A DNA stretch of 64,000 bases from NCBI GenBank assembly GCA_934190785.1, contig CAKPTA010000002.1, positions 146,269-210,268 of the forward strand, written 5' to 3'. This document shows positions 4,720 through 64,000 of the stretch, piece by piece. Every line of letters begins with the position of its first letter. Position 1 is the first letter of the stretch. The position numbers and the translations under genes are program-made. Under the pieces are notes generated by a model. The model was not told the DNA's origin, made no database searches, and saw only the letters and a list, made by a program, of their open reading frames with translations. The DNA comes from an uncultured Bacilli bacterium (GTDB lineage Bacteria; Bacillota_I; Bacilli_A; RF39; UBA660).

Positions 4720-4721
4720 TT

Positions 4722-10238: not shown

Positions 10239-10329
10239 TTATTATATCATAAATAAATTCAAAATTTAAAGGTAAATAAGTATATTTCATATAAAAATAA
10301 CCAAATTATTGATAGGAAGAGAGGTATAT

Positions 10330-12676: not shown

Positions 12677-12796
12677 TAAAAATGTAAAATGTTGTAAATT
12701 GTCGGGCACTTTTCCTCGATTTTATTTGCTATATGACTATTTGTTTGATATATTAGTTATGTTGTTTCAAAAATTTAGATATAAAAAGGAGATAAT

Positions 12797-12982
12797 ATGT
12801 CAAACGATGATGTTAAAGAATCGAGGGCTGTTAGATTTGTGTGTATAATAGGTGCTTTACTTTTTTTAGGAAGCATCTTATCTGATTTAGATTTTTTAGG
12901 AGCATTTTATTTATTCTCTGTTTCAGTATTTGTTATTAGATATTTTATTGCAAAGAGAAAAATAAAAATGAGTAGTAAGTAG
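12797..12982 (+). CDS. small hypothetical membrane protein
   Basis: 61 aa with two predicted TM helices. RBS AAAGGAG. A perfect hairpin terminator (AAATTATATCA/TGATATAATTT plus T-run, 12985-13017) follows. Confidence 0.3.
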   Translation: MSNDDVKESRAVRFVCIIGALLFLGSILSDLDFLGAFYLFSVSVFVIRYFIAKRKIKMSSK

Positions 12983-13025
12983 AAAATTATATCAAAAAAT
13001 GATATAATTTTTTTGGTGAAGAAAT

Positions 13026-13781: not shown

Positions 13782-13826
13782 TTGTGCTAAACTTTAGCTA
13801 TATTTTACTAGTGTATGAGGTGTGAT

Positions 13827-14522: not shown

Positions 14523-14545
14523 ACCTTAAATTAGGCGGTGATATA

Positions 14546-15376: not shown

Positions 15377-15429
15377 ACAGTTTAGGACTGTTTTTTTTTA
15401 ATGTTAATATATTTATATAGGGTGATATA

Positions 15430-16764: not shown

Positions 16765-17415
16765 ATGATAAATAGAATGTGGGATAAAGTTTTACAAAAA
16801 GAATTTACAAGTGATTATTTTAGAAAGTTAGGAATTTTTGTTAAATCAGAATATAAAAGCAAGATAATATATCCTGAATATGAACATATATTTGATGCAT
16901 TTAGGTATACTGATTATGATCAAGTTAAGGTTGTAATTTTAGGACAGGATCCATATCATGGTGAAGGAGAGGCACATGGTTTATCATTTTCTGTTCGAGA
17001 GGGGGTAAAAATGCCACCTTCACTAAGAAATATATTTAAGGAATTAGAAGATGATGTTGGTGTAAAAAGAACACAAACTAATTTAGTAGATTGGGCTAAG
17101 CAAGGTGTTTTGCTTTTGAATTCAATTATGACAGTTGTAAAAGATAGTCCATTGTCTCACAAGGATAAAGGATGGGAAATTTTTACTGATAATGTTATTA
17201 AAGAACTAGGAAAAAGAGAAAAGCCTATGGTATTTATATTATGGGGAAGTTATGCAAGAAGTAAAAAAGTATTGATTGAAAACAAAAATCATTTAATTAT
17301 AGAGTGTGTTCACCCATCTCCATTATCTGCAAATCGTGGCTTTTTCGGAAGTAAACCATTTTCTAAAACAAATGCTTTTTTAAGAAAAAATAATATGGAA
17401 GAAATAAAATGGTAG
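16765..17415 (+). CDS. ung: uracil-DNA glycosylase (family 1)
   Basis: Water-activating loop GQDPYHG, GLSFSV, and a C-terminal HPSPLS motif. Start uncertain (16708, 16765 or 16777). Confidence 0.85.
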   Translation: MINRMWDKVLQKEFTSDYFRKLGIFVKSEYKSKIIYPEYEHIFDAFRYTDYDQVKVVILGQDPYHGEGEAHGLSFSVREGVKMPPSLRNIFKELEDDVGVKRTQTNLVDWAKQGVLLLNSIMTVVKDSPLSHKDKGWEIFTDNVIKELGKREKPMVFILWGSYARSKKVLIENKNHLIIECVHPSPLSANRGFFGSKPFSKTNAFLRKNNMEEIKW

Positions 17416-17424
17416 GAGGATATT

Positions 17425-42708: not shown

Positions 42709-43467
42709 ATGACAGCTTTGATAACTGGGGCAAGTTCTGGTATTGGAAAAGATATGGCTATTATTTTAAGTAATTTAGGCTATGATTTGATTTTAGTATC
42801 AAGAAACAAACAAGAATTATTGTTGGTTCAAAAATTAATTAAAACAAATTCAAAAATTATTCCTCTTGATTTATCGGTAGAGGAAAACTGTTTTAACCTT
42901 TTTGAAGAGGTAAAAAATGAAAATATAGATATTTTAATAAATAATGCTGGTTTTGGTATTTATGGCTTTTTTGATAAAACAGATATTGCAAGTGAAATAA
43001 AGCAACTAGAATTAAATACTAAAGCAGTATTAATTTTAACAAAACTTTTTTTACCGTTGATGGAAAAGAAAAATTATGGATATATATTAAATGTAGCATC
43101 ATCAGCGGCTTATTTACCAGGACCTTTAATGAGTGGTTATTATGCAAGTAAAGCCTATGTACTTAGATTAACAGAATCTATTCATGGTGAATTAAAGGCA
43201 AAAAAAAGTAATGTATATATTGGTGCATTATGTCCAGGTCCTGTCGATACTAATTTTAATAATAATGCAGGTATAAAATTTAGCGCACCAACTATATCAA
43301 GTTATAAAGTTGCAAATTATGCATTAAAGAAAATGTTTAAAAAGAAAATAGTTATAGTTCCTGGTATGCATATGAAACTTTCTATCTTTTTTGTTAGATT
43401 TATACCACATTGTATTTTAATCAAAATAGCATATTTTATACAAAGGAGGAAAAGTATTTATGAATAA
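42709..43467 (+). CDS. short-chain dehydrogenase/reductase (SDR) family oxidoreductase
   Basis: TGASSGIGKD cofactor motif, NNAG, catalytic YASK. Start chosen at MTALITG (RBS GGTGAGAG). The track ORF starts at 42685. Confidence 0.8.
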   Translation: MTALITGASSGIGKDMAIILSNLGYDLILVSRNKQELLLVQKLIKTNSKIIPLDLSVEENCFNLFEEVKNENIDILINNAGFGIYGFFDKTDIASEIKQLELNTKAVLILTKLFLPLMEKKNYGYILNVASSAAYLPGPLMSGYYASKAYVLRLTESIHGELKAKKSNVYIGALCPGPVDTNFNNNAGIKFSAPTISSYKVANYALKKMFKKKIVIVPGMHMKLSIFFVRFIPHCILIKIAYFIQRRKSIYE

Positions 43468-43867
43468 TAAAGGATTAACTTTAGTGGAATTATTGGGTGT
43501 TTTAGTTGTTTTAACTGTTATTGTTTCAATTGTAACTTCCATTGTAACAAGAGATTTAAAAAAATCACGAGTAGAATTATGTGAACATGAATTAGATTCT
43601 TTTATTGATGCTTCTAAAAATTGGCTTACAGATAAAATAGATGGTGATTATTCTAATGTATATGAGTCTGATGGTAATTTTATAGAACAGTGTGTAACAG
43701 TAGAACAATTATATAATGGAGGTTATATTACAGAACCAGATAAAAAATATATAAATTCTAATGTTGGAGTAATTATAACTAAAAATAATGCATCATATTC
43801 ATATGATATTGCTGAAAAAACAGGTTCTACTTGTAAAAAAGTAAAAACTTCAAATATATGTAATTAA
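43460..43867 (+). CDS. prepilin-type N-terminal cleavage/methylation domain protein (second pilin-like gene)
   Basis: MNNKGLTLVELLGVLVVLTVIVSIV is a class III signal peptide. 135 aa with a C-terminal Cys pair. RBS AGGAGG. Confidence 0.6.
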   Translation: MNNKGLTLVELLGVLVVLTVIVSIVTSIVTRDLKKSRVELCEHELDSFIDASKNWLTDKIDGDYSNVYESDGNFIEQCVTVEQLYNGGYITEPDKKYINSNVGVIITKNNASYSYDIAEKTGSTCKKVKTSNICN

Positions 43868-48168: not shown

Positions 48169-48834
48169 GTGTTACGTTATAAAATATGTGTTTTATTTTT
48201 ATTTATTGTTGGTATATGTTCTTCAAGTTTTGTTTTAGCAAGAGATAATAGTTTACCTCTTTTTGGTAAGGTTATATATATTGACCCAGGTCATGGAGGT
48301 GTTGATCCAGGGGCTATGTATAAAGATATTAAAGAAAAAGATATTAATTTAAGTATTAGTAATGTTATATCCGATAAACTTACGAAACTTGGTGCAATTG
48401 TGTATTTAACCAGATATGATGATTATGATTTAGCTATAACAAATACAATAAATCGAAAACGAAGTGATTTATCAAGACGTGGGAATATAATTAATAGATC
48501 AAATTGCGATATATTTTTATCCATACATTTGAATGCTGAAGAAACAGGAATATGGAGAGGTGCCCAAGTATTTTATAATAATGAAAATAAAGAAAATGAG
48601 GTACTTGCTAAATTATTGCAAAAGAATTTTAATAAAAGACTTAATAGTAATAGAGAGTATAAATTAGCTAATGATTTATATCTCCAAAAAAGAGTTGATA
48701 GGCCAGGAGTATTAATTGAAGTTGGCTTTTTAAGTAATGCAAGTGATAGATATCTTCTTAAACAAGCAAGTTATCAAAATAAAGTTGCAGTAGTTGTAAC
48801 TGATAGTATAGTTGAATATTTTTTACAAAAATAG
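48169..48834 (+). CDS. cwlD: germination-specific N-acetylmuramoyl-L-alanine amidase CwlD-like (Amidase_3)
   Basis: Signal/TM N-terminus. VIYIDPGHGGVDPGA...LSIHLNAEE (Zn ligands). Position after rpsI/ybaJ matches Bacillus cwlD. Confidence 0.8.
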   Translation: MLRYKICVLFLFIVGICSSSFVLARDNSLPLFGKVIYIDPGHGGVDPGAMYKDIKEKDINLSISNVISDKLTKLGAIVYLTRYDDYDLAITNTINRKRSDLSRRGNIINRSNCDIFLSIHLNAEETGIWRGAQVFYNNENKENEVLAKLLQKNFNKRLNSNREYKLANDLYLQKRVDRPGVLIEVGFLSNASDRYLLKQASYQNKVAVVVTDSIVEYFLQK

Positions 48835-48948: not shown

Positions 48949-49881
48949 ATGGGTAAAAAAATATTTAAAACTTTAGATGAACAAATAGAAATATTACAAA
49001 ATAAAGGTTTAATTATTAATGATATAGATAATGCTAAACAAATATTATTTCGTGAAAACTATTTCTTTGTTAGTGGTTATAGACATTTATTTATGCGCTC
49101 TTCTAAAGAAAATATTTTTATTAAAGGAACTACATTTGATGAGTTGTATGCAACATTTGTTTTTGATAGAAGAATTCGTAATATCATGTTTAAGTATATT
49201 TTAATAATTGAAAATAATATGAAATCAATCATTAGTTATCAATTATCAAAAAAATATGGTATTAAAGAAAGAGATTACTTAAATCCTAAAAATTTTATAC
49301 AAGATGGAATAAAATCAAGACAAGTAAATGATGTAATAGCAAAAATGAAAAGACAAATTCGTGTTAACGGAAAGCAACATACAGCAACACTACATTATTT
49401 AAGTAATTATGGTTATATTCCTATGTGGATTTTAGTAAAAGTTTTATCTTTTGGTATTATTTCTGAATTATATAATATTCTAAAAGCAGAAGATGCATAT
49501 AGTATTGCAGAATATTATAATTTACAGCCTGATTCTCTTTCTATTTATTTAGCAATTTTATCTAATTATAGAAATGTATGTGCCCATGAAGATATTTTAT
49601 ATGACCATAGGATACAAAGGTCTATACCTGATACTAAATATCACTATTTACTTGATATTGAAGCGACAGATGAGGAATATAATTATGGTAAAAATGATTT
49701 GTTTGCCGTAATTATTATTATGAAATTTATGTTACAACCAACTGAGTTTCATGACCTTATCTATGAAATTGGGTATGAAATTGATATATTAGATGGAAAA
49801 GTTGATACAGTACCATTGAATTTAATTTTGAATAAAATTGGTTTTCCTAATAATTGGCGTGATATAGACGATTTAGATTAG
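48949..49881 (+). CDS. Abi_2 family (AbiD/AbiF/AbiR-like) abortive infection protein, HEPN-type
   Basis: 310 aa. The N-terminus LDEQIEILQNKGLIINDIDNAKQILFRENYFFVSGY is characteristic of Abi_2. HEPN motif RNVCAHEDIL (Rx4H). Extended -10 promoter TGATATAAT at 48921-29. Confidence 0.75.
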   Translation: MGKKIFKTLDEQIEILQNKGLIINDIDNAKQILFRENYFFVSGYRHLFMRSSKENIFIKGTTFDELYATFVFDRRIRNIMFKYILIIENNMKSIISYQLSKKYGIKERDYLNPKNFIQDGIKSRQVNDVIAKMKRQIRVNGKQHTATLHYLSNYGYIPMWILVKVLSFGIISELYNILKAEDAYSIAEYYNLQPDSLSIYLAILSNYRNVCAHEDILYDHRIQRSIPDTKYHYLLDIEATDEEYNYGKNDLFAVIIIMKFMLQPTEFHDLIYEIGYEIDILDGKVDTVPLNLILNKIGFPNNWRDIDDLD

Positions 49882-51656: not shown

Positions 51657-52787
51657 ATGAAAAAATATATAAAGAGAAGTATTAAATTTTTTTGTTTGTC
51701 ACTTATAGTTTGTCCTTTATCTATTCATGCTATAACATTAAAAGAATATGAAGATCAAGTTGCAAAGTATACAGCTGAATTACAAGAAAAACAAAATCAA
51801 ATTGCCAAGAATGAAGAAGAGGCTGCGCAAATAAAAGAAAAAATAAATAGTATCAAGAAACAAATTAATGATGCTGGTTCACAAATTGAATCATTAGAAG
51901 ATGAAATTGTGAAGAGTAATGAACAAATAAAGCAGAAAAAAGAAGAAATAAAAAAAATAGTTAACTATTATCAAATATCTAGTAGTGGAAATTCATATAT
52001 AGAATATATCTTTGGTGCAGAGAGTATTACAGATATGATATATCGTTTAGCTATTTCTGAACAACTTACATCATATAATGATAGAACAATAAAAGAATTA
52101 AATCAATTGATTGAAAATAATGAAAAAAAGAAAGAAGATTTAAGTAAGAAACAAATAGAACTCGGTAATTTAAATGCATCATTGTATGAAGAACAAAGCA
52201 AAATAGAATCTGATACAGGTCAAATAGAGGGAACATTACCTTCTACAACAGGGCAGATTGCTTTTTATCAAAAGAGAGTTGATTATTATAAATCAAAAGG
52301 TTGTAAATCAAATGATGTAATTGGTGTTACATGTGATGTACCAAGTAAAACAACAATTATAGGTGCAAATGGATTTAGATTTCCAGTAGATGGTGGTAGA
52401 ATAACGCAAGCTTACGGTAATGCAGGACATAAAGGTGTTGATATTGGAAAAAGTTGTGGTGCACCAATATATGCTGTTGCAGCAGGAAAAGTATACTATG
52501 TTGGTAGTGACCTAGATAAATATGGTGCTAAGATGGTATTAATTGCTCATAATGTAAATGGAAAGTTGGTATTTTCACAATATGCCCATTTAAGTTCATA
52601 TAATGTATCTGTAAATGAAGATGTTGATATTAATACTATTATTGGATATATGGGTAATACTGGATTATCATTTGGATGTCATTTACATTTAGAAATGTCA
52701 CAAAATATTGGTTGGGGATATAATGGAAGCTATGTTAATTATGTAAAAAATATCATAAGTCCATTTACATATGTACCACGACCATAA
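51657..52787 (+). CDS. M23 family peptidoglycan metalloendopeptidase with N-terminal signal peptide and coiled-coil region
   Basis: Coiled-coil (EEAAQIKEKINSIKKQINDAG...). LytM/M23 motifs HKGVDIG and HLHLE. RBS AGAGGTG lies before the ATG at 51657. Terminator at 52805-52833. Confidence 0.8.
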   Translation: MKKYIKRSIKFFCLSLIVCPLSIHAITLKEYEDQVAKYTAELQEKQNQIAKNEEEAAQIKEKINSIKKQINDAGSQIESLEDEIVKSNEQIKQKKEEIKKIVNYYQISSSGNSYIEYIFGAESITDMIYRLAISEQLTSYNDRTIKELNQLIENNEKKKEDLSKKQIELGNLNASLYEEQSKIESDTGQIEGTLPSTTGQIAFYQKRVDYYKSKGCKSNDVIGVTCDVPSKTTIIGANGFRFPVDGGRITQAYGNAGHKGVDIGKSCGAPIYAVAAGKVYYVGSDLDKYGAKMVLIAHNVNGKLVFSQYAHLSSYNVSVNEDVDINTIIGYMGNTGLSFGCHLHLEMSQNIGWGYNGSYVNYVKNIISPFTYVPRP

Positions 52788-52919
52788 TATAGTTAGTAAT
52801 GAACATGTTTCATTACTTTTTTTATTTAAAATATATTATTAATTAACAATATATTAGATTTATGATAATTAATAACACATTTACGTCTTTTTCATAAAAT
52901 ATTTTTAGGAGGAATATGT

Positions 52920-53192
52920 ATGAATAACTATAAAATTGTTATTGATGCTGGTCATGGTGGAAGTGATCCAGGAGCCAGTGGAAATGGAATAATAGAAAAA
53001 GATTTAACTTTAAAAATATCACAATATATGTATGATAGATTTAGAGAATTAGGAATTCCTGTTACAATGACAAGAACAACAGATGAAACTGTTGAGCCAA
53101 CAGAAAGAGTCAACCGTATTTTAAATGCTTATGGTAATAGTAGTGATGTAATTGTCATTAGTAATCACATAAATGCAGGAGGAGAGACTTAG
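52920..53192 (+). pseudogene. truncated N-acetylmuramoyl-L-alanine amidase (Amidase_3) N-terminal fragment
   Basis: MNNYKIVIDAGHGGSDPGASGNG...ISNHINAGGET then stop at 90 aa. Amidase_3 catalytic domains run about 170-180 aa. No continuation appears in any downstream frame. The AT-rich island begins immediately after. Confidence 0.6.
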
Positions 53193-53472
53193 CTCTTACA
53201 TGGATTAAATTTATAAGGGTATTAAGATGGCTGTATTTAAATGATTGAGTTAGATAGTATAAATTATCTAGAACGATATTAAATGATGTTAAAATAGTGT
53301 TTATTTGAGAGATAAATGCTATTTTTTGCTTTTTAATTAAAAAACATTAAATTGTCCTGAAAATACTGAAAAAAATGTCAAAATATGATAATATATACTT
53401 GTGAGGATAAGCAGTATTTAATCTTTTTAAGATGGATACTGCTTATTTTTTGAAATAAAGGAAGTGCCAGTA

Positions 53473-56400
53473 ATGAATTATAAAGAAAGAGGATATCTAT
53501 TTCAAGATATATTTTCAACATATATAATTATTAAATATGTTAAACAAATATTATGTGGACAAAAGGTACAGGCAGAAGTGGTTTTAGATAAAAAGAATAG
53601 TAAAGATGATAAATTTGATGACTTAAAGATAATTAATAATGATGATATATTAGAAGTTCAATTAAAATATAAAGAAATAAAAGAAGAATTAGAATTATCC
53701 GATTTTTCAAATTATAGTGGTGACTTCAATCTCTATCAGTTTATTCGAAGTTATAAAAATGGAAAAAATAAACAGGTTTGTTTACTAATAAGCTTAAATA
53801 AAATTAAATTGTCGAACGAACTAATTAAAGTATTAATTTTAGAAGATGATAATAAATTTTTTTCAAATTCACACAGATATAAATTTAAAAAAACAAAACA
53901 GTTAATAAACCTTCTTTATAAAAAAAGATTATCTGCTAAAGAAAAGCCTAAAATAGATTATTCAGATTTGACAAAAAATGATATTGAAATTTTTTTGGAT
54001 AATTTTGTAATAGAAATTACTAATAAGTCTATTGTTAATAATAGTATAAAAGTAGAGGTATTAGACGAGATTAGTGATGACATTGAAAAAATATCAAAAA
54101 TACCCAAGCAAGTTCTATATAATGATATGATTGAGACTATAAGAGAATATAGAGCAGAAGATGAATATAGAAAAATTAGTATATCTGAAATAACTAAAAA
54201 ATGGATTGAAAGAATAAAATTGATGAATTATACAATTCCAGTTAATAATGAATTAAATGTTGATTATGATTGCTTTATATCTAGAAGAAATGATGTAAAA
54301 GCTATTTTAGAAAAATTTAATAATACAAATCTAATCCATGTTATTGGGCAACCAGGAGTAGGAAAAAGTTGGTTTTCTAAAGAATTAACAGATGAGTTAT
54401 GTAAGAAGAATATAAAAAATAGTACATATTACTTTTATTTTAATTATGAAGATGTTGATAAGGAAAAGAGATTAAATGAGTATAATTTTATTACTACTTT
54501 TAATTATAATTTACAAAAATTTCATGGTTATAATATAAATATTTTTAATATGAATTTTGAAAAATTAGTACTTGGCGATGATGGTGAAGAGCATTACATT
54601 ATTTTTGATGGTCTTGACCATATTATTAGAGAAAAAAATTCAAATAGTATTAATATAGGTAATTTGATTGAAAAAATTGTAGAATTTTCAAAGAACAATA
54701 AAAATGTAAAAGTTCTAATTTTATCACAGCCATTAGAAGGAATTAAAATTGAAAATATATATGAATTAAAAAATTTAAATGAGTATCAATCAAATAAACT
54801 AATAGAGTTATATTCTAGAACATTAGATTTTCCTTTGGAAAAATTAATTGATAAAAGATTTTATTACAATAGTTGTGGGAATCCATTATTATTAAAATAT
54901 ATGGTAACAGACTATATTTTAAACGGCAATTTAGTTGATTACAAAATTACCGATTTAAATGATTATTACAAAAATATTTTTGATGGCAAACAATTTGTTA
55001 TTTATATGTATTTTGCAATTTTAAGTTTTCCTATATCACCAAAAGAATTAGAAGAGATTTCTTCTATATCTTTAGAAGAAATAATAAAAGAATTGAAATG
55101 TATTAGAAATGTATTATTAATAAATGAAAAAAATGAATATACGATTTTCCATGAAAGTTTAAGAAGATACATTTTATCATTAAAACAACTAAATAAAGAT
55201 AAATTGATAATGGATATAATTAATTGGTTTAATACTAAAGATTTATATTTTGAATCTAAAAAATTTAATTATTATCCATCTTTTGTATTAGAAAATAAAA
55301 AATATGAGTTATTTGATGAGAAATTTAATTATCAAAAAATAAAAATGGCAATTATTCAAAATGCATATTCAAATAAAGAAGTCCATCTTTTTATTAGAAA
55401 TTTATATATTATAAGTCAACATAAGTCAGATTTTAAAATGCTGTATTACTTAGAATATTTTTATGATGCTTATTATACTTTTTCATATGACTTTGATGTA
55501 AATATATTTGAGAACTACATTTATATGCTCTATTACTCTGGTGAATTTGATTTAATTAGAAAATTGGTTTATACAAAGAATATATCAGAATTTTCTAATG
55601 TTAATCAGCAGTGGGAATATATGAGAAAAATACTTGTTTTTCTATTAAAAAATAAATTTGAATTAAATTATAAAGAAATAATTAATAAATATTTTAATCA
55701 TGATAAAAGCAATAAAGTAATAAGGATAAATGACTTATTAATATCTGATGATTATGATAATATTAGATTAATATATGAATACTTAAAATATAATAAAATA
55801 TCTGATTTAAAGTTGACAGAAAATAATTTAGATATTAGTTCAGATTTATATGTATTATTGAATGCATTATTAAAAAATGAGAAAAGTCTTTTTATAGAAA
55901 CTTTTTATAAAAAGGATATTTTTCTATTAAAAAATAAAAATAAAGATTTATCAAATTTATTATTAAAATTATGTGAAAAGAAGTATATTTCTTCTTTAAA
56001 TAATTTATTTTTGCTAATTAATTATATATTTAATAACAATGAAAAAAAAATAAACAAATTGTTTTCTAATTGGGATCAAACATTTGAAAATGTTCCTTGT
56101 GTTTATAAATTTATTTGTATTTTTATAAAGTTGCTCTTGAATGATAATACTACAGAAACAGAAATTGCTGATTTTTTTAATCAATATAATTTTGAAACAC
56201 TAAACTTTGAAGGATATTTAAGCAATTATAATAATAATGATATAAATTTTATTGGTAAACTTGTTGTACTAAGCAGTAAGAAGAATTTTGTTATTCAATG
56301 CTTTATGAAATTTAAAGAAAGGATTTCAAAAGAAGCTGCAAAGCATTATCATGACGGAATTATATCCCTGTTAGCATCTATATATAGTCAAATTATAGAG

Positions 56401-58335
56401 AATGTCAAATATAATAATATTATATTAAATAAAGATACTTTAAATGAAATATTGATTAGGAATAATTATCAACAAAGTAATATAACAGAATTTGAAAATA
56501 ATATCATTAATTATACTTTATCAATAATTTCCGGAGAATTTAATGATATATATTATAATAATATAATTAAATATATGTTTAGTTACGGAAGCTATAGAGA
56601 TATACAAATATGGGAATTAGAAGATATACTTTCAAGATTAATTGGTTCAAGTAAAATTGATTTAAACAAATTTATACAATTAGTAACAATTGCCTATAAT
56701 GCAATAGACAGAATGGATAGAGCAAAGGATGTTTGGCATGTACCTAATGAACTAATAAAAATGTATTCTGACAAAATATCTCCTATAGAGGCAATAAATG
56801 TTTTCTTTAGTTTTTTAGAAACCTTTGACTATGATATAAGAGATAAAGATGATTTATTTTCACATTTATATGAAAATCTAAGCAATAATGAAAAGAATAA
56901 TAAGATAAATTTTATATATAATTATTGGCGATTCATGAATAAAAATATTACTTATCAATTTGATTCTAATAATACCGAACTAAAACAATGCATTAAAAAT
57001 TCTACTAAAGCACAGTTTAATTTTCTAAAATACAATATTTTGGAGTCATTAAAATTGAATGATATAGAATTGAATTATAATATACTAAAAGAAAAGTTTA
57101 ACAAGAAAAAATTGATATTAAATTATACATATCATCCACTTAAAAATTATTTGAAAAATGATAATCCCTATACTAATTCTATTAAATTTAATTCTTTTGC
57201 GGAATTCATTGAAAAAACAAATAATAGTTATTTTGATTGTAGAACTATTAATTTTGATAGTTTTATAAAAAATATTAAAGAATTAAATGATTCACAAGAT
57301 GTATTTAATTTATTTATAAATACAAAAAATTCTTCATACTTAAATTATATTTATGAAATATTTGAAAAAAACAATCTTGATTACAATACAATAAACGAAG
57401 ATATAATAGTAGAAATTTTAGTTGGAATTTACTATAGAAGCAATGGATATGTTTCTAACATGTCATATGATGAAATATTTGAAAAAGCCTTGCAAATTTC
57501 TCCAACAAAAGCAAAAGAGTCACTTAAAAGATATGTAATAAATGATAATAATATCGATTTAGGTAGAAAATCAGGAAAAATATTTAAATACCTGCTTAAT
57601 GATAATGACATTGATGAAATCTATAATTATGTTATTGAAATATATTTTTCACGATTACCAAATTATATAGAAATTACTAGGTATTGGAATTTAAATAAAT
57701 TTGATAATAATGATATTCTTTTAAATTATTTTTTAATAAAAATAATGAATTCAGGATTAAAACATAACCTATCTACAACTGAAGAAATGATTTTTTTAAA
57801 ACTGTTTGAGGTAAAAAAATTTTCAAATAATAAGATAGTTTATATGAAAAACATGGAAGGAGACTCATTATTTTATATTATTAATTTTTTGAAAATGTAC
57901 AGTAGGGTATTACGAATTAACTATGACTCTTTTTTGAATTATAAAAATATTAATAAATTTAATTATATTAAATTTCAAATAAATAATTCTAAAACAGAGA
58001 TTGTTGAATCAGAACGAAGTTTAGTAAATGATGAGTTAGATACAAAATTAGTAAGAAATTATAGAGGGTTAATAGCTATAGAATCTGACTTGGTATATTG
58101 GTATGAAGCAAATATGTATCAAGATTTTGGTGACGATTTGTTAGATAGAAATATAAATTATAAAATATTTCATATGCATAAAGTAAATGTTTTAAAATAT
58201 TTAAAAAACAGATTTTTATGTAATTTAAAATTAAAGATTTATTGGAGGAAGATTAATAAAATTATTAGAAAATCTTATTATGTTTTCCCTTCTTCATCTG
58301 TCATTTATATATATAATGAAAGAGACAATATATGA
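53473..58335 (+). CDS. very large (about 1,620 aa) STAND/NACHT-like P-loop NTPase; candidate antiviral STAND (Avs-like) sensor-effector protein
   Basis: RBS AAAGGAAG and ATG at 53473; the track's GTG at 53464 is less likely. Walker A VIGQPGVGKSW at about aa 292. Walker B HYIIFDGLDH is the STAND-type hhhhDGLD. Downstream TIFHESLRRYI resembles the NACHT FxHxSxQEYL motif. The N-terminal roughly 250 aa contain a D...ExQxK-like pattern (FDDLKIINNDDILEVQLKYK), a possible PD-(D/E)xK-like nuclease. The C-terminal roughly 1,000 aa are N/K/Y/I-rich, helical and repeat-like. No signal peptide. Very low GC. Confidence 0.7.
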   Translation: MNYKERGYLFQDIFSTYIIIKYVKQILCGQKVQAEVVLDKKNSKDDKFDDLKIINNDDILEVQLKYKEIKEELELSDFSNYSGDFNLYQFIRSYKNGKNKQVCLLISLNKIKLSNELIKVLILEDDNKFFSNSHRYKFKKTKQLINLLYKKRLSAKEKPKIDYSDLTKNDIEIFLDNFVIEITNKSIVNNSIKVEVLDEISDDIEKISKIPKQVLYNDMIETIREYRAEDEYRKISISEITKKWIERIKLMNYTIPVNNELNVDYDCFISRRNDVKAILEKFNNTNLIHVIGQPGVGKSWFSKELTDELCKKNIKNSTYYFYFNYEDVDKEKRLNEYNFITTFNYNLQKFHGYNINIFNMNFEKLVLGDDGEEHYIIFDGLDHIIREKNSNSINIGNLIEKIVEFSKNNKNVKVLILSQPLEGIKIENIYELKNLNEYQSNKLIELYSRTLDFPLEKLIDKRFYYNSCGNPLLLKYMVTDYILNGNLVDYKITDLNDYYKNIFDGKQFVIYMYFAILSFPISPKELEEISSISLEEIIKELKCIRNVLLINEKNEYTIFHESLRRYILSLKQLNKDKLIMDIINWFNTKDLYFESKKFNYYPSFVLENKKYELFDEKFNYQKIKMAIIQNAYSNKEVHLFIRNLYIISQHKSDFKMLYYLEYFYDAYYTFSYDFDVNIFENYIYMLYYSGEFDLIRKLVYTKNISEFSNVNQQWEYMRKILVFLLKNKFELNYKEIINKYFNHDKSNKVIRINDLLISDDYDNIRLIYEYLKYNKISDLKLTENNLDISSDLYVLLNALLKNEKSLFIETFYKKDIFLLKNKNKDLSNLLLKLCEKKYISSLNNLFLLINYIFNNNEKKINKLFSNWDQTFENVPCVYKFICIFIKLLLNDNTTETEIADFFNQYNFETLNFEGYLSNYNNNDINFIGKLVVLSSKKNFVIQCFMKFKERISKEAAKHYHDGIISLLASIYSQIIENVKYNNIILNKDTLNEILIRNNYQQSNITEFENNIINYTLSIISGEFNDIYYNNIIKYMFSYGSYRDIQIWELEDILSRLIGSSKIDLNKFIQLVTIAYNAIDRMDRAKDVWHVPNELIKMYSDKISPIEAINVFFSFLETFDYDIRDKDDLFSHLYENLSNNEKNNKINFIYNYWRFMNKNITYQFDSNNTELKQCIKNSTKAQFNFLKYNILESLKLNDIELNYNILKEKFNKKKLILNYTYHPLKNYLKNDNPYTNSIKFNSFAEFIEKTNNSYFDCRTINFDSFIKNIKELNDSQDVFNLFINTKNSSYLNYIYEIFEKNNLDYNTINEDIIVEILVGIYYRSNGYVSNMSYDEIFEKALQISPTKAKESLKRYVINDNNIDLGRKSGKIFKYLLNDNDIDEIYNYVIEIYFSRLPNYIEITRYWNLNKFDNNDILLNYFLIKIMNSGLKHNLSTTEEMIFLKLFEVKKFSNNKIVYMKNMEGDSLFYIINFLKMYSRVLRINYDSFLNYKNINKFNYIKFQINNSKTEIVESERSLVNDELDTKLVRNYRGLIAIESDLVYWYEANMYQDFGDDLLDRNINYKIFHMHKVNVLKYLKNRFLCNLKLKIYWRKINKIIRKSYYVFPSSSVIYIYNERDNI

Positions 58336-58366
58336 TATAATTATATATAGTTAGGAGGTTTTAATT

Positions 58367-59197
58367 ATGACTGAAAAAGAATTAGATTCAAGTGTTAACG
58401 AATATGAAGAAAAATATAAATCTAATAATTATGTAAAACAATTGAAGTGGGATATGGCTATTGGACTTCAAGAAGTAGATAATTTAAAGCCTTCTAAATA
58501 TTTAGAAAAATTATTAAAGGAAGAAGTAGAAGGTAATTTAACAATAGAAGAAGTAGAAAAAGAATTAAGAGAATATTATATTGAAAAAGAAAGTAAAAAT
58601 GAAGTAAATCATAATGAATTAGAATGTGATTTTGTATCTACTAGAATAGTTGAATTATTAAATAAAGATAATTTCGATTTATCAGTTAATTATTTAAAAT
58701 ACGTTCATAAATTTTTATTTCAAGATGTTTATGAATTTGTTGGTGAATTTAGAAAAATAGATTTTTCTAAACAGGAAAAGATACTTAACAATGATTCAGT
58801 AGTATATGGAGATTGTACTACTTTAAATCAATCACTAGAATACGATATATCGAAAGAATTAGAAAAAAACTATAAAGAAATGAATATAGTTGAAGTTATT
58901 AATAACATAACTAAATTTTCTTCTAGTATATGGCAAGTGCATCCTTTTAGAGAAGGAAATACTAGAACTACAGCCTTATTTATTGAAAAGTATTTAATTA
59001 GTTTAGGTTATAACTTAGATAATAGTTTATTTAAAGATAAATCGGTTTATTTTAGAAATGCTTTAGTAAGAAGTAATTATTTTAATAATTATTTGAATAT
59101 AAAAGAAGATAGTAGTTATTTATTTAAATTTTATGAAAATTTATTATTAGGTAAGAACAATAACCTACATTCAAAGGATTTAATTGTTCAAGAATAA
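58367..59197 (+). CDS. Fic/Doc (Fido) family protein with non-canonical active-site motif
   Basis: 276 aa. HPFREGNTRTTALFIEKYL matches HPFx(D/E)GNGRxxR except the second Gly is Thr and the final Arg is Ala. Starts 32 nt after the NTPase stop, with RBS AGGAGG, so likely co-transcribed. Terminator at 59209-59236. Confidence 0.7.
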   Translation: MTEKELDSSVNEYEEKYKSNNYVKQLKWDMAIGLQEVDNLKPSKYLEKLLKEEVEGNLTIEEVEKELREYYIEKESKNEVNHNELECDFVSTRIVELLNKDNFDLSVNYLKYVHKFLFQDVYEFVGEFRKIDFSKQEKILNNDSVVYGDCTTLNQSLEYDISKELEKNYKEMNIVEVINNITKFSSSIWQVHPFREGNTRTTALFIEKYLISLGYNLDNSLFKDKSVYFRNALVRSNYFNNYLNIKEDSSYLFKFYENLLLGKNNNLHSKDLIVQE

Positions 59198-59208
59198 TTG
59201 TTTGATAA

Positions 59209-59236
59209 AAAGTAATTAAACTATTACTTTTTTTAG
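59209..59236 (+). terminator. rho-independent terminator of the NTPase-Fic operon
   Basis: Perfect stem AAAGTAAT / ATTACTTT, loop TAAACT, then T7. Confidence 0.6.
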
Positions 59237-59287
59237 CAATTTTGATATATTGGTTATGCAAGGAAAAAATGGTAATACATTTTTGCA

Positions 59288-59326
59288 AGGGCACTATCTA
59301 GCGGTAGAGCCCTATTTTTTATTTTT
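59288..59326 (+). terminator. second hairpin terminator upstream of hsdM
   Basis: GC-containing stem GGGCACTATC / GGTAGAGCCC (one mismatch, one G-U pair) followed by TATTTTTTATTTTT. Confidence 0.45.
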
Positions 59327-59463
59327 GATTATGTAATAAGAGAATGTATTTTCTCTTTTTTTTTTTATAATTTTTTAGTTCAAATCCAAAGTTTACCAAA
59401 TTTCATGATATAATTAATATGATGGATGTTTATAATCTTATATAAATATAGGAGAGGGAGATT

Positions 59464-60963
59464 ATGGAAGAAAAAGATTTAAAAAAATTAGAAGATAAAT
59501 TATGGGCAGCTGCCGACAAAATGAGAGGTGCTGTTTCTGTATCAGATTATAAATTTATAGTACTAGGGTTAATATTCTTAAAATATATTTCTGATTCTTT
59601 TGAAGAAAAATATAATGAACTTGTAGATGAAGGTGCTGGATTAGAAGAAGAAAGAGATTGTTATACAGCAGAAAATATATTCTATGTTCCAAAAAATGCT
59701 AGATGGGAATATTTAGTAGAACATTCAAAGGATTCTAATATTGGTGAAATTATAGATGATGCTTTAACATTAATAGAAAAAGAAAATACATCATTGAAGA
59801 ATGTTTTACCAAAAGATTACAACTCTCCAACAATGAGAAATGTCAATTTAGGTGAACTACTAGATTTATTTACCAATATTAAAGTTGGAACTAAAGAAGC
59901 AATTCAAAAAGATATTTTAGGAAGAATATATGAATATTTTTTAGGTCAATTTGCCAAAAATGAATTACAAAAAGGTGGAGAATTTTATACACCAGCTTGC
60001 TTAGTTAGAACTATGGTTGAATGTATTGAACCATTTAAAGGTAAAGTATATGATCCAGCTTGTGGTTCTGGTGGAATGTTTATTCAATCAATGAAGTTTG
60101 TAGAAGAAAATCAAGGTAATATATATAATATTGGAATTTATGGACAAGAGAAAAATCCTACCACATGGCGACTTGCAAAAATGAACTTAGCTATAAGGTC
60201 TATGTATGGTGATTTAGGAAAATATGCGGCTGATACTTTTACTGAAGATTTACATAAAGATTTAAAAGCTGATTTTATACTTGCCAATCCACCATTTAAT
60301 CTTGAGTGGGATAGAGATAAAGTCGAAAATGATCCAAGATGGAGATATGGTTTAGCACCTAAAAACAATGCCAATTTTGCTTGGTTACAACACATGATAT
60401 CTAAGTTATCACAGAATGGTAAAATGGCTTGTATTTTAGCAAATGGTTCATTATCAGCAGGTGGTCAAGAGGGCGAAATAAGAAAAAAACTAATTGAAAA
60501 TGATTTAGTAGATTGTATCTTATCAATGCCTACTAACTTATTCTATACAGTTACCGTTCCATGTTCTATATGGATAATTAATAGAAATAAGAAACAAAAA
60601 GGTAAAACATTATTTATTAATGCAAATAATTTGGGTTCAATGGTAACTAGAAGATTAAGAGAGTTATCAGAAACAGATATTAAAAAAATTGCAGATACAT
60701 ATCATAGATATCAAAATGATGATAATTATGAAAATGTTAAAGGATTTTGTTATTCAGCAACTACAGAAGAAATAAGTGCCAATGATAATGTATTGACACC
60801 TGGTAGATATGTTGGAGTTGAAGAAAATCAATGTGATGATGTTCCGTTTGAAGAGAAAATGAAGAATATTACTTCAGAATTATCAAAGCAATTTGAAGAA
60901 TCACATAGATTAGAGGAAGAAATTAGAAAAAATATGAAAGCCATTGGTTTTGAGTTAGAATAA
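59464..60963 (+). CDS. hsdM: type I restriction-modification system DNA methyltransferase subunit HsdM (N6-adenine)
   Basis: 499 aa. N-terminal HsdM_N (LWAAADKMRG). SAM motif DPACGSGGMF. Catalytic NPPF (ILANPPFNLEW). An extended -10 TGATATAAT lies at 59406-14. Confidence 0.9.
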   Translation: MEEKDLKKLEDKLWAAADKMRGAVSVSDYKFIVLGLIFLKYISDSFEEKYNELVDEGAGLEEERDCYTAENIFYVPKNARWEYLVEHSKDSNIGEIIDDALTLIEKENTSLKNVLPKDYNSPTMRNVNLGELLDLFTNIKVGTKEAIQKDILGRIYEYFLGQFAKNELQKGGEFYTPACLVRTMVECIEPFKGKVYDPACGSGGMFIQSMKFVEENQGNIYNIGIYGQEKNPTTWRLAKMNLAIRSMYGDLGKYAADTFTEDLHKDLKADFILANPPFNLEWDRDKVENDPRWRYGLAPKNNANFAWLQHMISKLSQNGKMACILANGSLSAGGQEGEIRKKLIENDLVDCILSMPTNLFYTVTVPCSIWIINRNKKQKGKTLFINANNLGSMVTRRLRELSETDIKKIADTYHRYQNDDNYENVKGFCYSATTEEISANDNVLTPGRYVGVEENQCDDVPFEEKMKNITSELSKQFEESHRLEEEIRKNMKAIGFELE

Positions 60964-61007
60964 TCGTTTGTAGTATAATAATTACCGTCTTAAAGGGGGA
61001 AATTATT

Positions 61008-62006
61008 ATGAAAACGGAAGTAATATCTAATATTACAAAAGACATGGAAGATAGTCTTACTGATTATCAACTAAATAAGCTTAAAGAGAGCTTAATAATA
61101 AACTTCGAAGGAGTAGAGTTTATTATAAAAACTGATGAAGTAAAACATCAGGAAGAATTAGATGAAAATAAGAATATGATTGATTCATTTATTTCATCTA
61201 AACAAGTTGAAGGTTGTTCAGAACGAACAATTAAATACTATAAAGAAATTATTGAAAAATTTGTTAATAGTTTTGATAAAAGTATTAAACAAATATCAAC
61301 AAATGAAATAAGAAATTATTTATCTAATTATAAAGATAATAGTTCTTGTGGATCTACAACTATAGATAATATAAGAAGGGTATTATCATCATTCTTCTCT
61401 TGGTTAGAAGATGAGGATTATATTATAAAGAGTCCAGTTAGACGAATACATAAAATAAAAACAGCAGTGGTTGTTAAAGATGTTTTAACTGATGAAAATT
61501 TAGAAAGGTTAAGAGATGAATGTGAAAACGTAAGAGATTTATCACTAATAGAATTATTAATTTCAACAGGAATGAGAGTTGGAGAACTTGTTAATTTAAA
61601 TATTAATAGTCTTAATTTTGAAGATCGTTCTTGTATTGTATTAGGTAAAGGTAATAAAGAAAGAGAAGTATATTTTGATGCAAAAACAAAATTGCATTTA
61701 AAAAAATATATTTCAAAAAGAAATGATTCAAACGATGCCTTATTTGTATCAATGAGAGAACCACATCAGAAATTATCTATTTCTGGTATTGAATTAATAA
61801 TTAGAACATTAGGAATAAATTCAAATATAAATAAAGTTCATCCACACAAATTTAGAAGAACATTAGCAACAATGGCAATAGATAAAGGTATGCCAGTTGA
61901 ACAAGTTCAAAAGTTGCTAGGTCATGTAAAAATAGAAACTACAATGAACTATGCTTTAGTTAATCAAAGTAATGTTAAAATATCACATAGAAGATATATA
62001 GCATAG
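61008..62006 (+). CDS. tyrosine site-specific recombinase (phage integrase / XerC-XerD family)
   Basis: 332 aa. N-terminal SAM-like core-binding domain. C-terminal catalytic region with R (GMRVGEL), HPHKFRRT and LGHVKIETTMNYA (H-x-x-R...Y). Confidence 0.8.
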   Translation: MKTEVISNITKDMEDSLTDYQLNKLKESLIINFEGVEFIIKTDEVKHQEELDENKNMIDSFISSKQVEGCSERTIKYYKEIIEKFVNSFDKSIKQISTNEIRNYLSNYKDNSSCGSTTIDNIRRVLSSFFSWLEDEDYIIKSPVRRIHKIKTAVVVKDVLTDENLERLRDECENVRDLSLIELLISTGMRVGELVNLNINSLNFEDRSCIVLGKGNKEREVYFDAKTKLHLKKYISKRNDSNDALFVSMREPHQKLSISGIELIIRTLGINSNINKVHPHKFRRTLATMAIDKGMPVEQVQKLLGHVKIETTMNYALVNQSNVKISHRRYIA

Positions 62007-62033
62007 AATTATTATTTGTAAAAGGAGAGAAAT

Positions 62034-63176
62034 ATGGAGTTAAAAGAATTATGCAAAATTAAGCATGGTTTTGCTTTTAAAGGAAAGGATATAATAAAAA
62101 ATTATTCTACTAAATATGTTTTAGTTACTCCTGGTAATTTTAATATAGGTGGTGGTTTTAAGAAAGATAAATGTAAATATTTTTCTAAAAATGGTAACAT
62201 TCCAAAGGATTATATTTTAAGAGAAAATGATTTGATAGTTACCATGACCGATTTGAGTGTAAAGTCTGACACATTAGGCTACTCTGCACTTATACCAAAA
62301 GATAATAATATATATCTTCATAATCAACGAATTGGATTAGTTCATGATATAGATGAATCTAAAGTATTAAAAGATTATTTATACTGGTTTATGAGAACTA
62401 AAAAATATCAACAAGAGGTTGTAGCTTCTCAATCAGGTACTGCAATTCATCATACATCTCCAGATCGAATATTAAATATAGAAATCGATTTGCCATCAAT
62501 AGATAATCAGAGAAAAATAGTTAAAATATTGTCTGATGTAGAACATAAAATTAAAAATAATAATGATACAAATAATAATTTGTACGAGGTATCAAAACAA
62601 TTGTTATTAAAATATTTAGATGAAAATAAGAGTTTTGATGAAATTAATATAAGTAAATTTCTAAATATATTTACTGGAAAGAAGAATGCTAACGAAACAT
62701 CTCCAACTGGTAAATATAAATTCTTCTCTTGTGCACCAGAAAGTTTATTATCTGATACATATTTATGTGATAGTGCTGCAATAATAGTTGCTGGTAATGG
62801 TGCATATACAGGAAGAACAAGATTTTATGATGGTAAGTTTGAACTTTATCAAAGAACTTATGGATTAACATTGAAAGATGGCTTTGAAAAGAATAATATA
62901 TATGGTTTATATGTATTTATGAAAACTATTTTTGAACCAGATAAGATGGGTGGAACTCATGGATCAGCTATACCATATATTGTGTTATCAGATTTGACAG
63001 ATTATAAATTAAAATATAACAAAGTTGAATTTGATAGATTTTCAAATTTAGTAAGTGGTAATATAAAAATGATTCAAGAAAATGAAAAATCTAATGAAAA
63101 ATTATCAGAACTAAGAGATACATTATTACCAAAATTAATGAATGGTGAAATAGATTTAGATAATATAGAGATTTAA
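62034..63176 (+). CDS. hsdS: type I restriction-modification specificity subunit HsdS (two target-recognition domains)
   Basis: 380 aa. Central conserved spacer (LPSIDNQRKIVKILSDVEHKI) and C-terminal conserved helix (LRDTLLPKLMNGEIDL) flank two variable TRDs. Confidence 0.85.
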   Translation: MELKELCKIKHGFAFKGKDIIKNYSTKYVLVTPGNFNIGGGFKKDKCKYFSKNGNIPKDYILRENDLIVTMTDLSVKSDTLGYSALIPKDNNIYLHNQRIGLVHDIDESKVLKDYLYWFMRTKKYQQEVVASQSGTAIHHTSPDRILNIEIDLPSIDNQRKIVKILSDVEHKIKNNNDTNNNLYEVSKQLLLKYLDENKSFDEINISKFLNIFTGKKNANETSPTGKYKFFSCAPESLLSDTYLCDSAAIIVAGNGAYTGRTRFYDGKFELYQRTYGLTLKDGFEKNNIYGLYVFMKTIFEPDKMGGTHGSAIPYIVLSDLTDYKLKYNKVEFDRFSNLVSGNIKMIQENEKSNEKLSELRDTLLPKLMNGEIDLDNIEI

Positions 63177-63211
63177 TCATACAAATTGTGATTTGTATAA
63201 TGGAGGAATAC

Positions 63212-63973
63212 ATGAAAAAGGATTTATTTGATTATATAATAGAACCAACGGATAAAGAGTATAGAAAAGAAAATATAATAGACGATATATCTTTTATCCC
63301 AAAACTTATCATCCCTAAAAATGCTTATTTTATGAATCATCATGATTACTTAATAAATGATGCAATTGTAAATTATAATAATGAAACAGTAGTTGCAAAA
63401 ATGTTTTATGCAAACATGATAAAATATGAGAAATATTATGAAAAAACTAAAGATGAAAACTACGATTTTTGGGCAAGAAAGAATGGAGAACAGTTAATTA
63501 AGGAATTATATTCTATTTATGATAAGTCGGTTCATATTGTTAATTATTTGTTTGATTTGAAAGTACTTCCTGATTTAGGATTTAAAAAAAATATTAGAGA
63601 ACAATTAAAATCTAAAGATAAAGATTTCTATAAAGTGTTTAACAAAATATTTAGTAAACTTTATGGGGAATCAAACAATGTCGTTCGTGATGATATAACT
63701 CACAATTTTAGTAATTTATTTTTTAGATATGTTCCTAAGTACGATGATAGTAAGGAAACTGGTTGGTATACTGAAGAGTCTTTATCCTTTAAAGAATACA
63801 AAAATATAATTGATGAAATCTGTTCGTTATTGGTAGAAAATAAAAATATTATTATAAATAAAATTGCTAGTATTTATCCTAAAAAGGGAACAGAAGAATA
63901 CGAAGAACAATGTAAGAAGAATATTGATAGGGCAAAAGAAATGTATGATAAATTAAAAGCTGGAAATCATTAA
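63212..63973 (+). CDS. hypothetical protein with HEPN-like Rx4HN motif (candidate Abi/RNase partner of the RM locus)
   Basis: 254 aa. RBS GGAGGA lies before the ATG at 63212. The C-terminal half contains VVRDDITHNFSN (R-x4-H-N). No other recognisable motif. Confidence 0.4.
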   Translation: MKKDLFDYIIEPTDKEYRKENIIDDISFIPKLIIPKNAYFMNHHDYLINDAIVNYNNETVVAKMFYANMIKYEKYYEKTKDENYDFWARKNGEQLIKELYSIYDKSVHIVNYLFDLKVLPDLGFKKNIREQLKSKDKDFYKVFNKIFSKLYGESNNVVRDDITHNFSNLFFRYVPKYDDSKETGWYTEESLSFKEYKNIIDEICSLLVENKNIIINKIASIYPKKGTEEYEEQCKKNIDRAKEMYDKLKAGNH

Positions 63974-64000
63974 AAGATATTTAATGAGTAACATCAAAAA

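Follow-up and report, generated by a model that had tools for sequence, protein, structure and literature searches.

At the 3′ end of a 64,000-nucleotide stretch of DNA from an uncultured Bacilli bacterium (RF39, UBA660; GenBank assembly GCA_934190785.1, contig CAKPTA010000002.1, forward-strand positions 146,269 to 210,268), hereafter the window, lies the 5′ part of an amidase gene that is split by a defence island. The amidase open reading frame (ORF) at window 52920-53192 on the + strand encodes 90 aa ending in ...SNHINAGGET*; host codons 1-88 run up to 53182 and the last three codons (ET*) are derived from the island. Its match to the Pfam Amidase_3 profile is confined to positions 1-79 of 174, in agreement with the original prediction, made from the letters alone, that the frame stops in the middle of the catalytic domain. 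Residues 1-88 of a full-length homologue (P0002) align to window 52920-53183 with 81% identity, and a tblastn comparison found no other match to the C-terminal half of P0002 within the window, where, as had been stated, no downstream frame continues the gene. An exact-protein look-up led to a locus on a 409-kb metagenome scaffold (L001; L and P numbers denote loci and proteins) that is 100% identical to window 52034-64000 and extends the window by 9.2 kb. The missing 3′ half lies on this same scaffold at L001 20133-21057, 8.2 kb past the window end and 18.98 kb downstream of the 5′ half, so that the gene is indeed split by an insertion and its remainder does lie past 64,000, as had been supposed. 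The ORF that contains it opens at L001 20119 and reads (MNLSG)ADGAEVIYALRN... followed by four LysM repeats; the 3′ fragment itself starts with ADGAEVIY... and holds the catalytic half together with the four repeats. Intact homologues (65-82% identical, 340-390 aa) span the break as ...SNHINAGGGDGAEVIYALRN..., also given as ...SNHINAGGGDGAEVIY..., and joining the window up to 53182 with L001 from 20133 onwards yields a single 395-aa ORF that is collinear with them and carries Amidase_3 and four LysM domains.

The amidase has no signal peptide, and its N-terminal Amidase_3 domain is followed by the wall-binding repeats. In the family alignment, the conserved H12, E26 and H83 are located on the 5′ fragment and E151 (in VEYGF) on the 3′ fragment; we read H12, E26 and H83 as the Zn ligands typical of Amidase_3 enzymes and E151 as their catalytic Glu. 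Because these presumed ligands and the catalytic Glu sit on separate fragments, neither fragment should be active on its own. Both halves are free of recognizable decay in the catalytic domain, with 0 deviations at the 67 columns that are at least 95% conserved. Within the species, polymorphism points the same way: 6 synonymous and 3 non-synonymous changes were counted in the 5′ fragment, and in the 3′ part the 5 non-synonymous changes all fall outside the catalytic domain. At L001 20119-20122 the stop codon of the last island ORF (275 aa) overlaps, within an ATGA, the ATG that opens the 312-aa amidase 3′ ORF, so that island transcripts could yield a LysM protein devoid of catalytic activity.

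The island extends from window 53183 to window-equivalent position 72165, a length of 18,983 bp, of which the left 10.8 kb (53183-64000, + strand) are in the window and the remainder beyond it. The right junction, correctly expected past the window end, is at L001 20131-20132 (window-equivalent 72164-72165). The attL site (53160-53206) is composed of the host B arm, the crossover GG at 53181-53182 and the island P′ arm at 53183-53206, and reads ...AATGCAGGA-GG-AGAGACTTAGC..., while attR reads ...GAACTTATCA-GG-TGCCGATGG... with its GG at L001 20131-20132. The insertion point is a GG dinucleotide in codon 88, within the motif NAGG|G(D/E)GAEV, and the junctions expected after excision are CATAAATGCAGGAGGTGCCGATGGTGCTGA for attB and ATGAACTTATCAGGAGAGACTTAGCTCTTA for attP. 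An att site or direct repeat and relatives lacking the island had been named at the outset as things to look for, and both were found. The two att sites share the GG, and when a conspecific contig (L138) is compared with the island ends the blastn segments overlap by the 3 nt AGG. The same contig carries the empty site, with 71 of 71 bases identical to the predicted attB (window ...53182 joined to L001 20133...). It was reached through a 359-aa protein from the 90% cluster of the 3′ fragment that is uninterrupted through NAGGADGAEV; the contigs encoding this protein (L138-L140) are of the same species, with flanks 98.3-99.5% identical.

From the loci with both ends in reach (L112, L100 and L134; arms of 18-24 nt around the GG), we derived a family attP, TAATGG-N6-AAC-N6-GG-N6-GTT-N6-CCATTA, which is an imperfect inverted repeat around a non-palindromic GG. 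The family therefore has the inverted-repeat attP with a central dinucleotide by which sites of large serine recombinases (LSR) are recognized, and in the window copy the P arm fits this pattern but the P′ arm does not, being without the GTT and CCATTA blocks.

The integrase of the island was out of sight in the window. It is a 556-aa LSR with Resolvase, Recombinase and Zn_ribbon domains, encoded at L001 17497-19167, and it is the sole integrase-class gene located at an island end, 0.96 kb from attR. Its nearest NCBIfam models are CcrB and XisF, both weakly matched (81-112 bits vs cut-offs of 375-900), and PHROG returns 'integrase'. The LSR belongs to a conserved right-end core that also comprises a 50-aa ORF resembling ribbon-helix-helix (RHH) proteins (L001 16667-16819), a 99-aa HTH_36 protein (16823-17122) and a 32-aa ORF (17323-17421). 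Judged from their conservation and position, the small ORFs near the LSR (32 aa, 50-56 aa RHH-like and 99 aa HTH_36) are candidate directionality factors. Upstream of the LSR, at L001 17230-17425, there are overlapping conserved micro-ORFs of 32 aa and 23-26 aa (the latter ending in ...NINLNRWF(N/K)YERSLFE), and an alignment of this region with L097, L098, L100, L103 and L105 shows a 9-nt in-frame indel that separates lineages; these micro-ORFs could encode a directionality factor or act in leader-peptide control. The left end of the island also has a conserved module, which is closed, immediately ahead of the first cargo gene, by a hairpin with a T-run at window 53403-53451 (+ strand; -20.9 kcal/mol, z = -4.8, 0 of 200 shuffles folding as well). 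The hairpin is kept in L100, L122 and L125 before differing cargo and is likely an insulating terminator; a simple terminator scan did not report it, though folding supports it.

The LSR family counts more than 120 database clusters at 89-99% identity. We compared 27 loci anchored on LSRs that are 89-99% identical (L001, L097-L107, L112-L119 and L132-L137), amounting to ~12 non-redundant contexts. In every one of them whose contig reaches far enough, the LSR is followed 0.1-1.5 kb further on by an amidase 3′ fragment that begins at the same codon of the gene, and the order HTH_36, 32-aa ORF, LSR, one variable gene and amidase 3′ fragment is shared. The hosts fall into eight lineages, in which the amidase 3′ parts are 41-66% identical and the chromosomal neighbours differ. 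Identical LSR proteins are nonetheless found in hosts with amidase 3′ parts that are just 47-59% identical; P0175 was recovered from host loci L097, L098 and L100, P0239 from L103 and L105, and P0122 from L132 and L133. Since the LSRs are identical in hosts with such divergent amidases, the sequences indicate that the core moved recently between distant hosts, landing in one codon each time, and this observation and the empty site of L138 bear out the horizontal acquisition that had been proposed.

Unlike the core, the stretch from attL to the core and the one gene that separates the LSR from attR vary in almost every context, and we infer that these two cargo bays hold interchangeable anti-phage systems. 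In the copy under study they carry a STAND NTPase, a Fic protein, a type I restriction-modification (RM) system with a HEPN-like gene and, in the right bay, a 275-aa membrane protein. Across different copies the cargo includes SIR2 with DUF87, an OLD-family nuclease with UvrD (Gabija-like), HamA with a helicase (Hachiman-like), AlwI and Dcm RM systems, type I RM, STAND NTPase, DUF6119 and KAP NTPase. The PADLOC and Pfam matches, and a content that differs from strain to strain, agree with the defence-type cargo first claimed and with what is understood by a defence island, namely mostly known or candidate anti-phage genes in strain-variable combinations. That the element is an LSR-mediated, site-specific and mobile defence island is, in our judgement, close to certain.

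The individual cargo calls of the original prediction stood for the STAND, Fic, HsdM and HsdS genes, all on the + strand. The STAND NTPase (window 53464-58335, the gene callers starting at 53473; 1620-1623 aa) matches Pfam NPHP3_N at 3e-10 and NACHT weakly, has no PADLOC family, and is replaced in sister strains, for example by HATPase_c_3 and Dcm in L008/L009. It is followed by the Fic-domain protein (58367-59197; Pfam Fic 1.8e-11, PADLOC candidate system PDC-S72 1.1e-77), the type I RM methyltransferase HsdM (59464-60963; Pfam N6_Mtase 2e-110 and HsdM_N, PADLOC MTase_I 2e-186) and, past a recombinase gene, the specificity subunit HsdS (62034-63176; Pfam Methylase_S, PADLOC Specificity_I 8.5e-49). 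The recombinase, a tyrosine recombinase at 61008-62006 (+ strand; Pfam Phage_integrase 5e-39), was rejected as the island's integrase, given that it sits inside the RM module and that the real integrase lies beyond the window. Its position between hsdM and hsdS resembles the layout of phase-variable type I RM systems; no inverted hsdS repeats or partner that would explain it were found in the island (L001 7300-16000), and in L103 two opposed hsdS genes flank the recombinase. The HEPN-like call for the 253-aa protein at 63212-63973 (+ strand) is plausible, although there is no match in Pfam, PADLOC, NCBIfam or PHROG. The protein has 41 representatives in a library of 1.8 billion proteins, and a family alignment of 18 sequences shows invariant R159, H164, N165, S167 and I200, the first four forming the HEPN-type Rx4HN motif. 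Its AlphaFold2 model is confident (predicted local distance difference test score, pLDDT, of 91) and mostly helical, and Foldseek gave only weak matches to HEPN toxins.

Beyond the window, L001 carries a 218-aa ORF (12109-12765) and HsdR (12780-15812), and after a non-coding stretch of ~0.85 kb comes the right-end core described above, the last island ORF being that of the 275-aa membrane protein (19295-20122). Among the island genes, Pfam and PHROG revealed no capsid, portal, terminase or packaging gene, nor were there relaxase or secretion/conjugation genes or a recognizable oriT. Readings of the island as a prophage or satellite, or as an integrative and conjugative or integrative and mobilizable element (IME), were therefore rejected, the phage structural and packaging genes and the relaxase being absent.

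With respect to base composition, the sharp drop described in the original prediction is real but modest, and it is not a codon-usage signature. The window as a whole is very A+T-rich (24-34% G+C across 2-kb windows), and the island has 23.4% G+C (22.8% for the part in the window) vs 28.4% for window 1-53186, which is lower than any equal-sized flank window (minimum 25.9%). The drop arises at codon positions 1 and 2, whereas the G+C content at third positions (GC3) is equal in island and host genes (~0.09-0.19). Only the STAND and Fic genes (20-21% G+C) are clearly outside the host range, and the type I RM genes (25-29%) are not.

The amidase gene turned out to be occupied by more than one kind of element. 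In all 10 distinct contexts of the window species, anchored on an identical upstream M23 peptidase protein, the amidase is interrupted, and with the L008-type context and L138 added this becomes 12 of 12. At least four LSR element types are present at three positions within the gene. The GG in codon 88 is occupied by islands with the canonical arm (L122, L124, L125 and L129), by islands with the window-type arm (L130 and the L008-type) and by one with a different, G+C-richer arm (L126). A second element type is inserted ~9 nt downstream of this GG, after G(D/E)(G/S), in L127 and, in other species, in L018 and L019 (L018 10232-10300, L019 9138-9200 and L127 ~4507-4600); its arm reads CA(T/A)TGTGTAACAAA... 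and its cargo consists of a methyltransferase, a DUF262/HNH-like protein and an 822-aa membrane protein. The third position is a CATGG in codons 12-13 (GHGG motif; window 52953-52957), which is empty in the window and occupied in the conspecific L138, L123, L128 and L131 as well as in L113 of another host. The element found there is an IME of ~8.3 kb (measured in L138, 1621-9925) with a Mob_Pre relaxase, a Lactamase_B protein and a DUF4368-type LSR (531-714 aa), and its insertions show a 5-nt overlap in the blastn alignment. In L113 (1-860) the IME and the defence island are both present, and the amidase is cut in three pieces. The exact reconstituted full-length amidase is absent from a collection of 15 billion proteins; an amidase-profile scan of the genome collection had L018, L019 and L020 among the matches listed, and the window's species was not among them. 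Two features of the locus are unusual, namely one gene serving as the docking site of multiple elements and a recombinase core that is nearly unchanged across genera.

Several observations suggest a link between the amidase and sporulation. A sigma-K-type promoter-like motif, AC-N16-CATAAAATA, is found upstream of the gene at window 52875-52901 (+ strand), with its -10 box at 52893-52901 and a ribosome-binding site AGGAGG at 52907-52912. Over 73 kb, no other intergenic site on the + strand matches AC-N16/17-CATAnnnTA. Of 8 orthologous promoters with otherwise unrelated upstream sequence, 7 have the CATAnnnTA box at -24 to -27 relative to the start codon, and six of them also have a C 16 nt upstream of the box; for comparison, the background rate of the box is 6e-4 per position, and it falls within -45 to -12 in 2 of 79 ORFs. 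The motif occurs a second time ahead of a LysM gene that is SafA-like. Just one other ORF in the region has a CATAnnnTA box 12-45 nt before its start; this ORF, at window 43460-43867 (135 aa, no recorded Pfam family), may likewise be a late-sporulation gene. As for the neighbourhood, a SleB/CwlJ-like hydrolase is a conserved convergent neighbour of the amidase locus, and a CotZ-like coat gene (Pfam 54 bits vs a cut-off of 24) is located 4 kb downstream. Further upstream in the window, a SpoVT-like gene (10309-10863) and a CwlD-like gene (48169-48834) match their NCBIfam models over the full length, and the gene orders rplM-rpsI-methyltransferase-cwlD and mfd...spoVT resemble those of B. subtilis; the two genes and their order suggest, by sequence, a divergent spore former with a small genome. 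Between cwlD and htrA, in an otherwise housekeeping context, there is also a solitary AbiD/Abi_2 abortive-infection gene (window 48949-49881; PADLOC AbiD 2.6e-60), which is in all conspecific contigs seen.

The analysis goes beyond the original prediction in assigning the integrase to an LSR at the far island end, in revealing a conserved sigma-K-type promoter motif and sporulation neighbours, and in recognizing the gene as a shared docking site. Given the conserved sigma-K-type motif upstream of the amidase and the spore genes that flank the locus, the whole is best explained by an integrative defence island acting as a gene-intervening element of the skin or gin kind, a reading to which we give an even chance. 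Two features of the sporulation gene-intervening elements (skin, SPbeta, vfbin, vrin and gin) are present, since the interrupted coding sequence reads as one ORF when its halves are joined, a junction that L138 has in nature, and since an LSR lies near one end. Under this explanation, the amidase would be a late mother-cell gene, analogous to cwlC and transcribed from the sigma-K-type promoter. By analogy with the known elements, the island, inserted by its own LSR, may be cut out again solely in the dying mother cell: the LSR and a directionality factor would excise it in the terminally differentiating cell and thereby rebuild the amidase there, whereas the spore genome would retain the island, which would thus be the defence-cargo version of skin, SPbeta and gin. 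Excision confined to the mother cell would explain why the island is tolerated and even ubiquitous in the species, and 'disrupted', the word that fits the first reading, may mean 'reversibly split'. For the sporulation-coupled step itself, argued by analogy, we put the chances at slightly below even. The undamaged catalytic domain of a gene that is interrupted in all conspecific contexts also counts in favour. The precedent is established: LSR elements are known that interrupt mother-cell genes and leave them by excision at sporulation, gin being a non-phage, RM-carrying example (PMC5595907, PMC4191935, PMC5025042), and cwlC and cwlH are genes of terminal mother-cell lysis (PMC517825).

A number of points weigh against this explanation. 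No sigK, spo0A or sigE was seen within the ~85 kb of the genome covered, and both sporulation-type genes of the window score below their NCBIfam cut-offs (187 bits vs 236 for the SpoVT-like and 209 bits vs 222 for the CwlD-like gene). The consensus that AC-N16-CATAnnnTA matches is what we take to be the sigma-K consensus of B. subtilis. Upstream of the LSR or the small ORFs no sporulation-type promoter was recognizable; a CATAAATTT box upstream of the LSR and the 32-aa ORF, considered as a sigma-E/sigma-K-like promoter, was not counted, having no -35 partner at a conserved spacing. None of the small core ORFs matches a known directionality factor, and none was identified as one. The exact 30-nt species-specific attB and attP gave 0 matches in the JGI metagenome contigs and in IMG/VR, a search without a control that the species occurs there, and the degenerate attP pattern gave 0 matches in IMG/VR and two in JGI, neither being a free circle. 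One of the latter, L121, is a chance match with 42% G+C. The other, L120, was rejected as an excised circle, being a low-coverage chromosomal remnant with a 5′-truncated LSR, and this remnant is, among the contexts examined, the sole exception to the amidase-codon location of the LSR family. The polymorphism counts for the two amidase fragments are also small. In addition, the atypical P′ arm means that the window copy may be either an excision-defective, locked copy or a tolerated variant. Lastly, LSR-bearing IMEs in Firmicutes commonly disrupt dispensable genes (PMC5704250).

With regard to L120 itself (2410-5700 of a low-coverage contig), its attP-type joint of P arm, GG and P′ arm stands between chromosomal genes, with cdsA and rseP on one side, and adjoins the truncated LSR and a frameshifted Fic gene, with no amidase fragment alongside. 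A tandem or dimeric insertion could have left it behind, or the contig could be misassembled.

The strongest competitor is plain insertional inactivation, in which the amidase would be dispensable, the widely conserved NAGGG(D/E)GAEV coding sequence a convenient landing site, the island a mobile carrier of defence genes, whether selfish or beneficial, and the gene dead while occupied; turnover of the elements, through excision by the LSR now and then or through homologous replacement, would have no developmental link. We consider this a real possibility, though less likely than not. Serine-recombinase IMEs do typically integrate inside dispensable genes (PMC5704250), the variety of element types at three positions would suit a neutral 'safe harbour', the identical LSRs in distant hosts speak for recent insertions so that intact halves need not imply selection, and no excised form was found. 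However, every sampled genome of the species is interrupted and yet the catalytic domain is without decay. New integrations moreover need an intact attB, which calls for repeated restoration of the gene. Furthermore, both the sporulation neighbourhood and the conserved promoter of sigma-K type fit the genes known to tolerate such elements through excision in the mother cell.

It is also conceivable, but with a still smaller probability, that this particular copy, though descended from the mobile family, is locked in: with its P′ half-site of attL rewritten, the LSR would no longer pair attL with attR, and the island would be fixed and the amidase permanently split. There are ~20 changes within the first 38 nt of the island, including the loss of both the GTT and the CCATTA block, in a region whose neighbouring sequence is ~98% identical to L125, and L125 carries the same STAND cargo but a canonical arm. 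The LSR P0122, 99% identical to that of the window, uses the canonical arm in other hosts, and the odd arm is restricted to this attL, being present in 13 of 140 loci, all of them from this species. On the other hand, two variants that differ at 13 positions in the next 60 nt share exactly the same odd arm, a pattern that resembles constraint on the arm and not decay; the LSR gene is intact, the half-sites of LSRs need not be symmetric, and the amidase halves of this lineage are undamaged.

Far less probable is an element induced by stress or phage, as a satellite or by 'active lysogeny', in which a repressor switch would trigger excision upon infection or DNA damage. In the sister elements L097, L098 and L100 a gene for a cI-like HTH repressor does lie in divergent orientation to the core operon, the HTH_36 protein is similar to the N-terminal part of phage replication initiators, and SPbeta combines both types of control (PMC4191935). 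Nevertheless, the window's island has no cI-like gene and contains no packaging, capsid or replication enzyme genes, and IMG/VR, as reported above, holds no match to the degenerate attP. Finally, the idea that there is no island, the 90-aa ORF being a naturally short amidase paralogue and the composition change noise, has in its favour the equal GC3 of island and host genes, but it is refuted by the collinear, in-frame 3′ half 18.98 kb away and by the empty site of L138; the island's G+C is also under that of every equal-sized flank window, and in the genomes examined the short ORF never occurs without an element, the very case that would have overturned the original prediction.

The closest counterpart of the proposed gene-intervening island is gin, found in gerE of Bacillus cereus ATCC 10987 (PMC5595907), which is likewise a non-phage element of lower G+C with an RM system and serine recombinase genes, splits a mother-cell sporulation gene within its coding sequence, has a short junction repeat and varies in content between strains. 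The two differ in that gin encodes three serine recombinases, its directionality factor (GirX) has been demonstrated and its excision was proven by experiment, whereas the present island has one LSR and is known from sequence alone; in addition, the target of gin is a regulator, while here it is an amidase, the cargo is almost all defence and the core is common to several genera. The skin elements (in sigK of B. subtilis and C. difficile) and SPbeta (in spsM) also have an LSR at one end and are inserted in mother-cell genes, the germ line keeps the element, and different elements use different positions of the same gene across species (PMC4191935, PMC5025042, PMC5499854). They are, however, prophages or remnants thereof, whereas our island is without phage structural genes and its sporulation timing is inferred only. 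XisF of the fdxN element of Anabaena and CcrB of SCCmec are large serine recombinases too, and excision by XisF is developmentally programmed and restores a gene in a terminally differentiated cell, but the similarity is weak, as the bit scores given above show, and hosts, targets and accessory factors differ.

Tn4451/TndX-type and other serine-recombinase IMEs of Firmicutes (PMC5704250) resemble the island in being small elements with a site-specific LSR and an intragenic insertion, and the Mob_Pre, DUF4368-type element at codon 13 of the same amidase in sister strains is exactly of that type. The window's island differs from them in having no recognizable relaxase or oriT and in an LSR without the DUF4368 tail. 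As carriers of defence genes, P4-like satellites, phage-inducible chromosomal islands and pipolins (PMC11551731) similarly combine a conserved integration and regulation core with variable bays of interchangeable anti-phage systems; unlike them, the present element uses a serine recombinase and targets a protein-coding, sporulation-type gene of Gram-positive gut bacteria. The amidase, for its part, recalls CwlC of B. subtilis (PMC517825), which also has an N-terminal Amidase_3 domain, no signal peptide and C-terminal wall-binding repeats, and whose late mother-cell expression is paralleled by the promoter type suggested here. CwlC binds the wall through an SPOR-type repeat, however, whereas the amidase described here has four LysM and no SPOR; we therefore do not class it with CwlC, and use the resemblance in layout and promoter type as an analogy only. 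A survey of the full-text literature on intervening elements, sporulation, serine recombinases, amidases and defence islands returned the known cases, and none of the texts found dealt with an amidase as target or with the present family of elements.

Even if there were no excision, the locus would still be a clear case of a hyper-variable integration hotspot within a conserved gene. It provides a natural set of attB, attP, attL and attR for a highly conserved LSR, useful for tests of directionality and possibly as an integration tool, and with the docking site as a ready marker, gut metagenomes could be mined for new defence systems. More speculatively, and with a probability that we place well short of even, one late-sporulation amidase gene could be the shared parking gene for much of the mobile immunity of a clade of uncultured, low-G+C, spore-forming gut Bacilli. 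In the mother cell its elements would all be excised together, the cost of carrying them would be paid only in a cell about to die, and the defence cargo would circulate between genera via a site invisible to vegetative selection. If the proposed gene-intervening role is true, a cell-wall amidase would be a new target gene, and uncultured gut Bacilli with genomes of ~1.5 Mb new hosts, among the few sporulation genes known to be developmentally rearranged, and elements of this sort would be shown capable of specializing in the carriage of interchangeable anti-phage systems and of moving them between genera.

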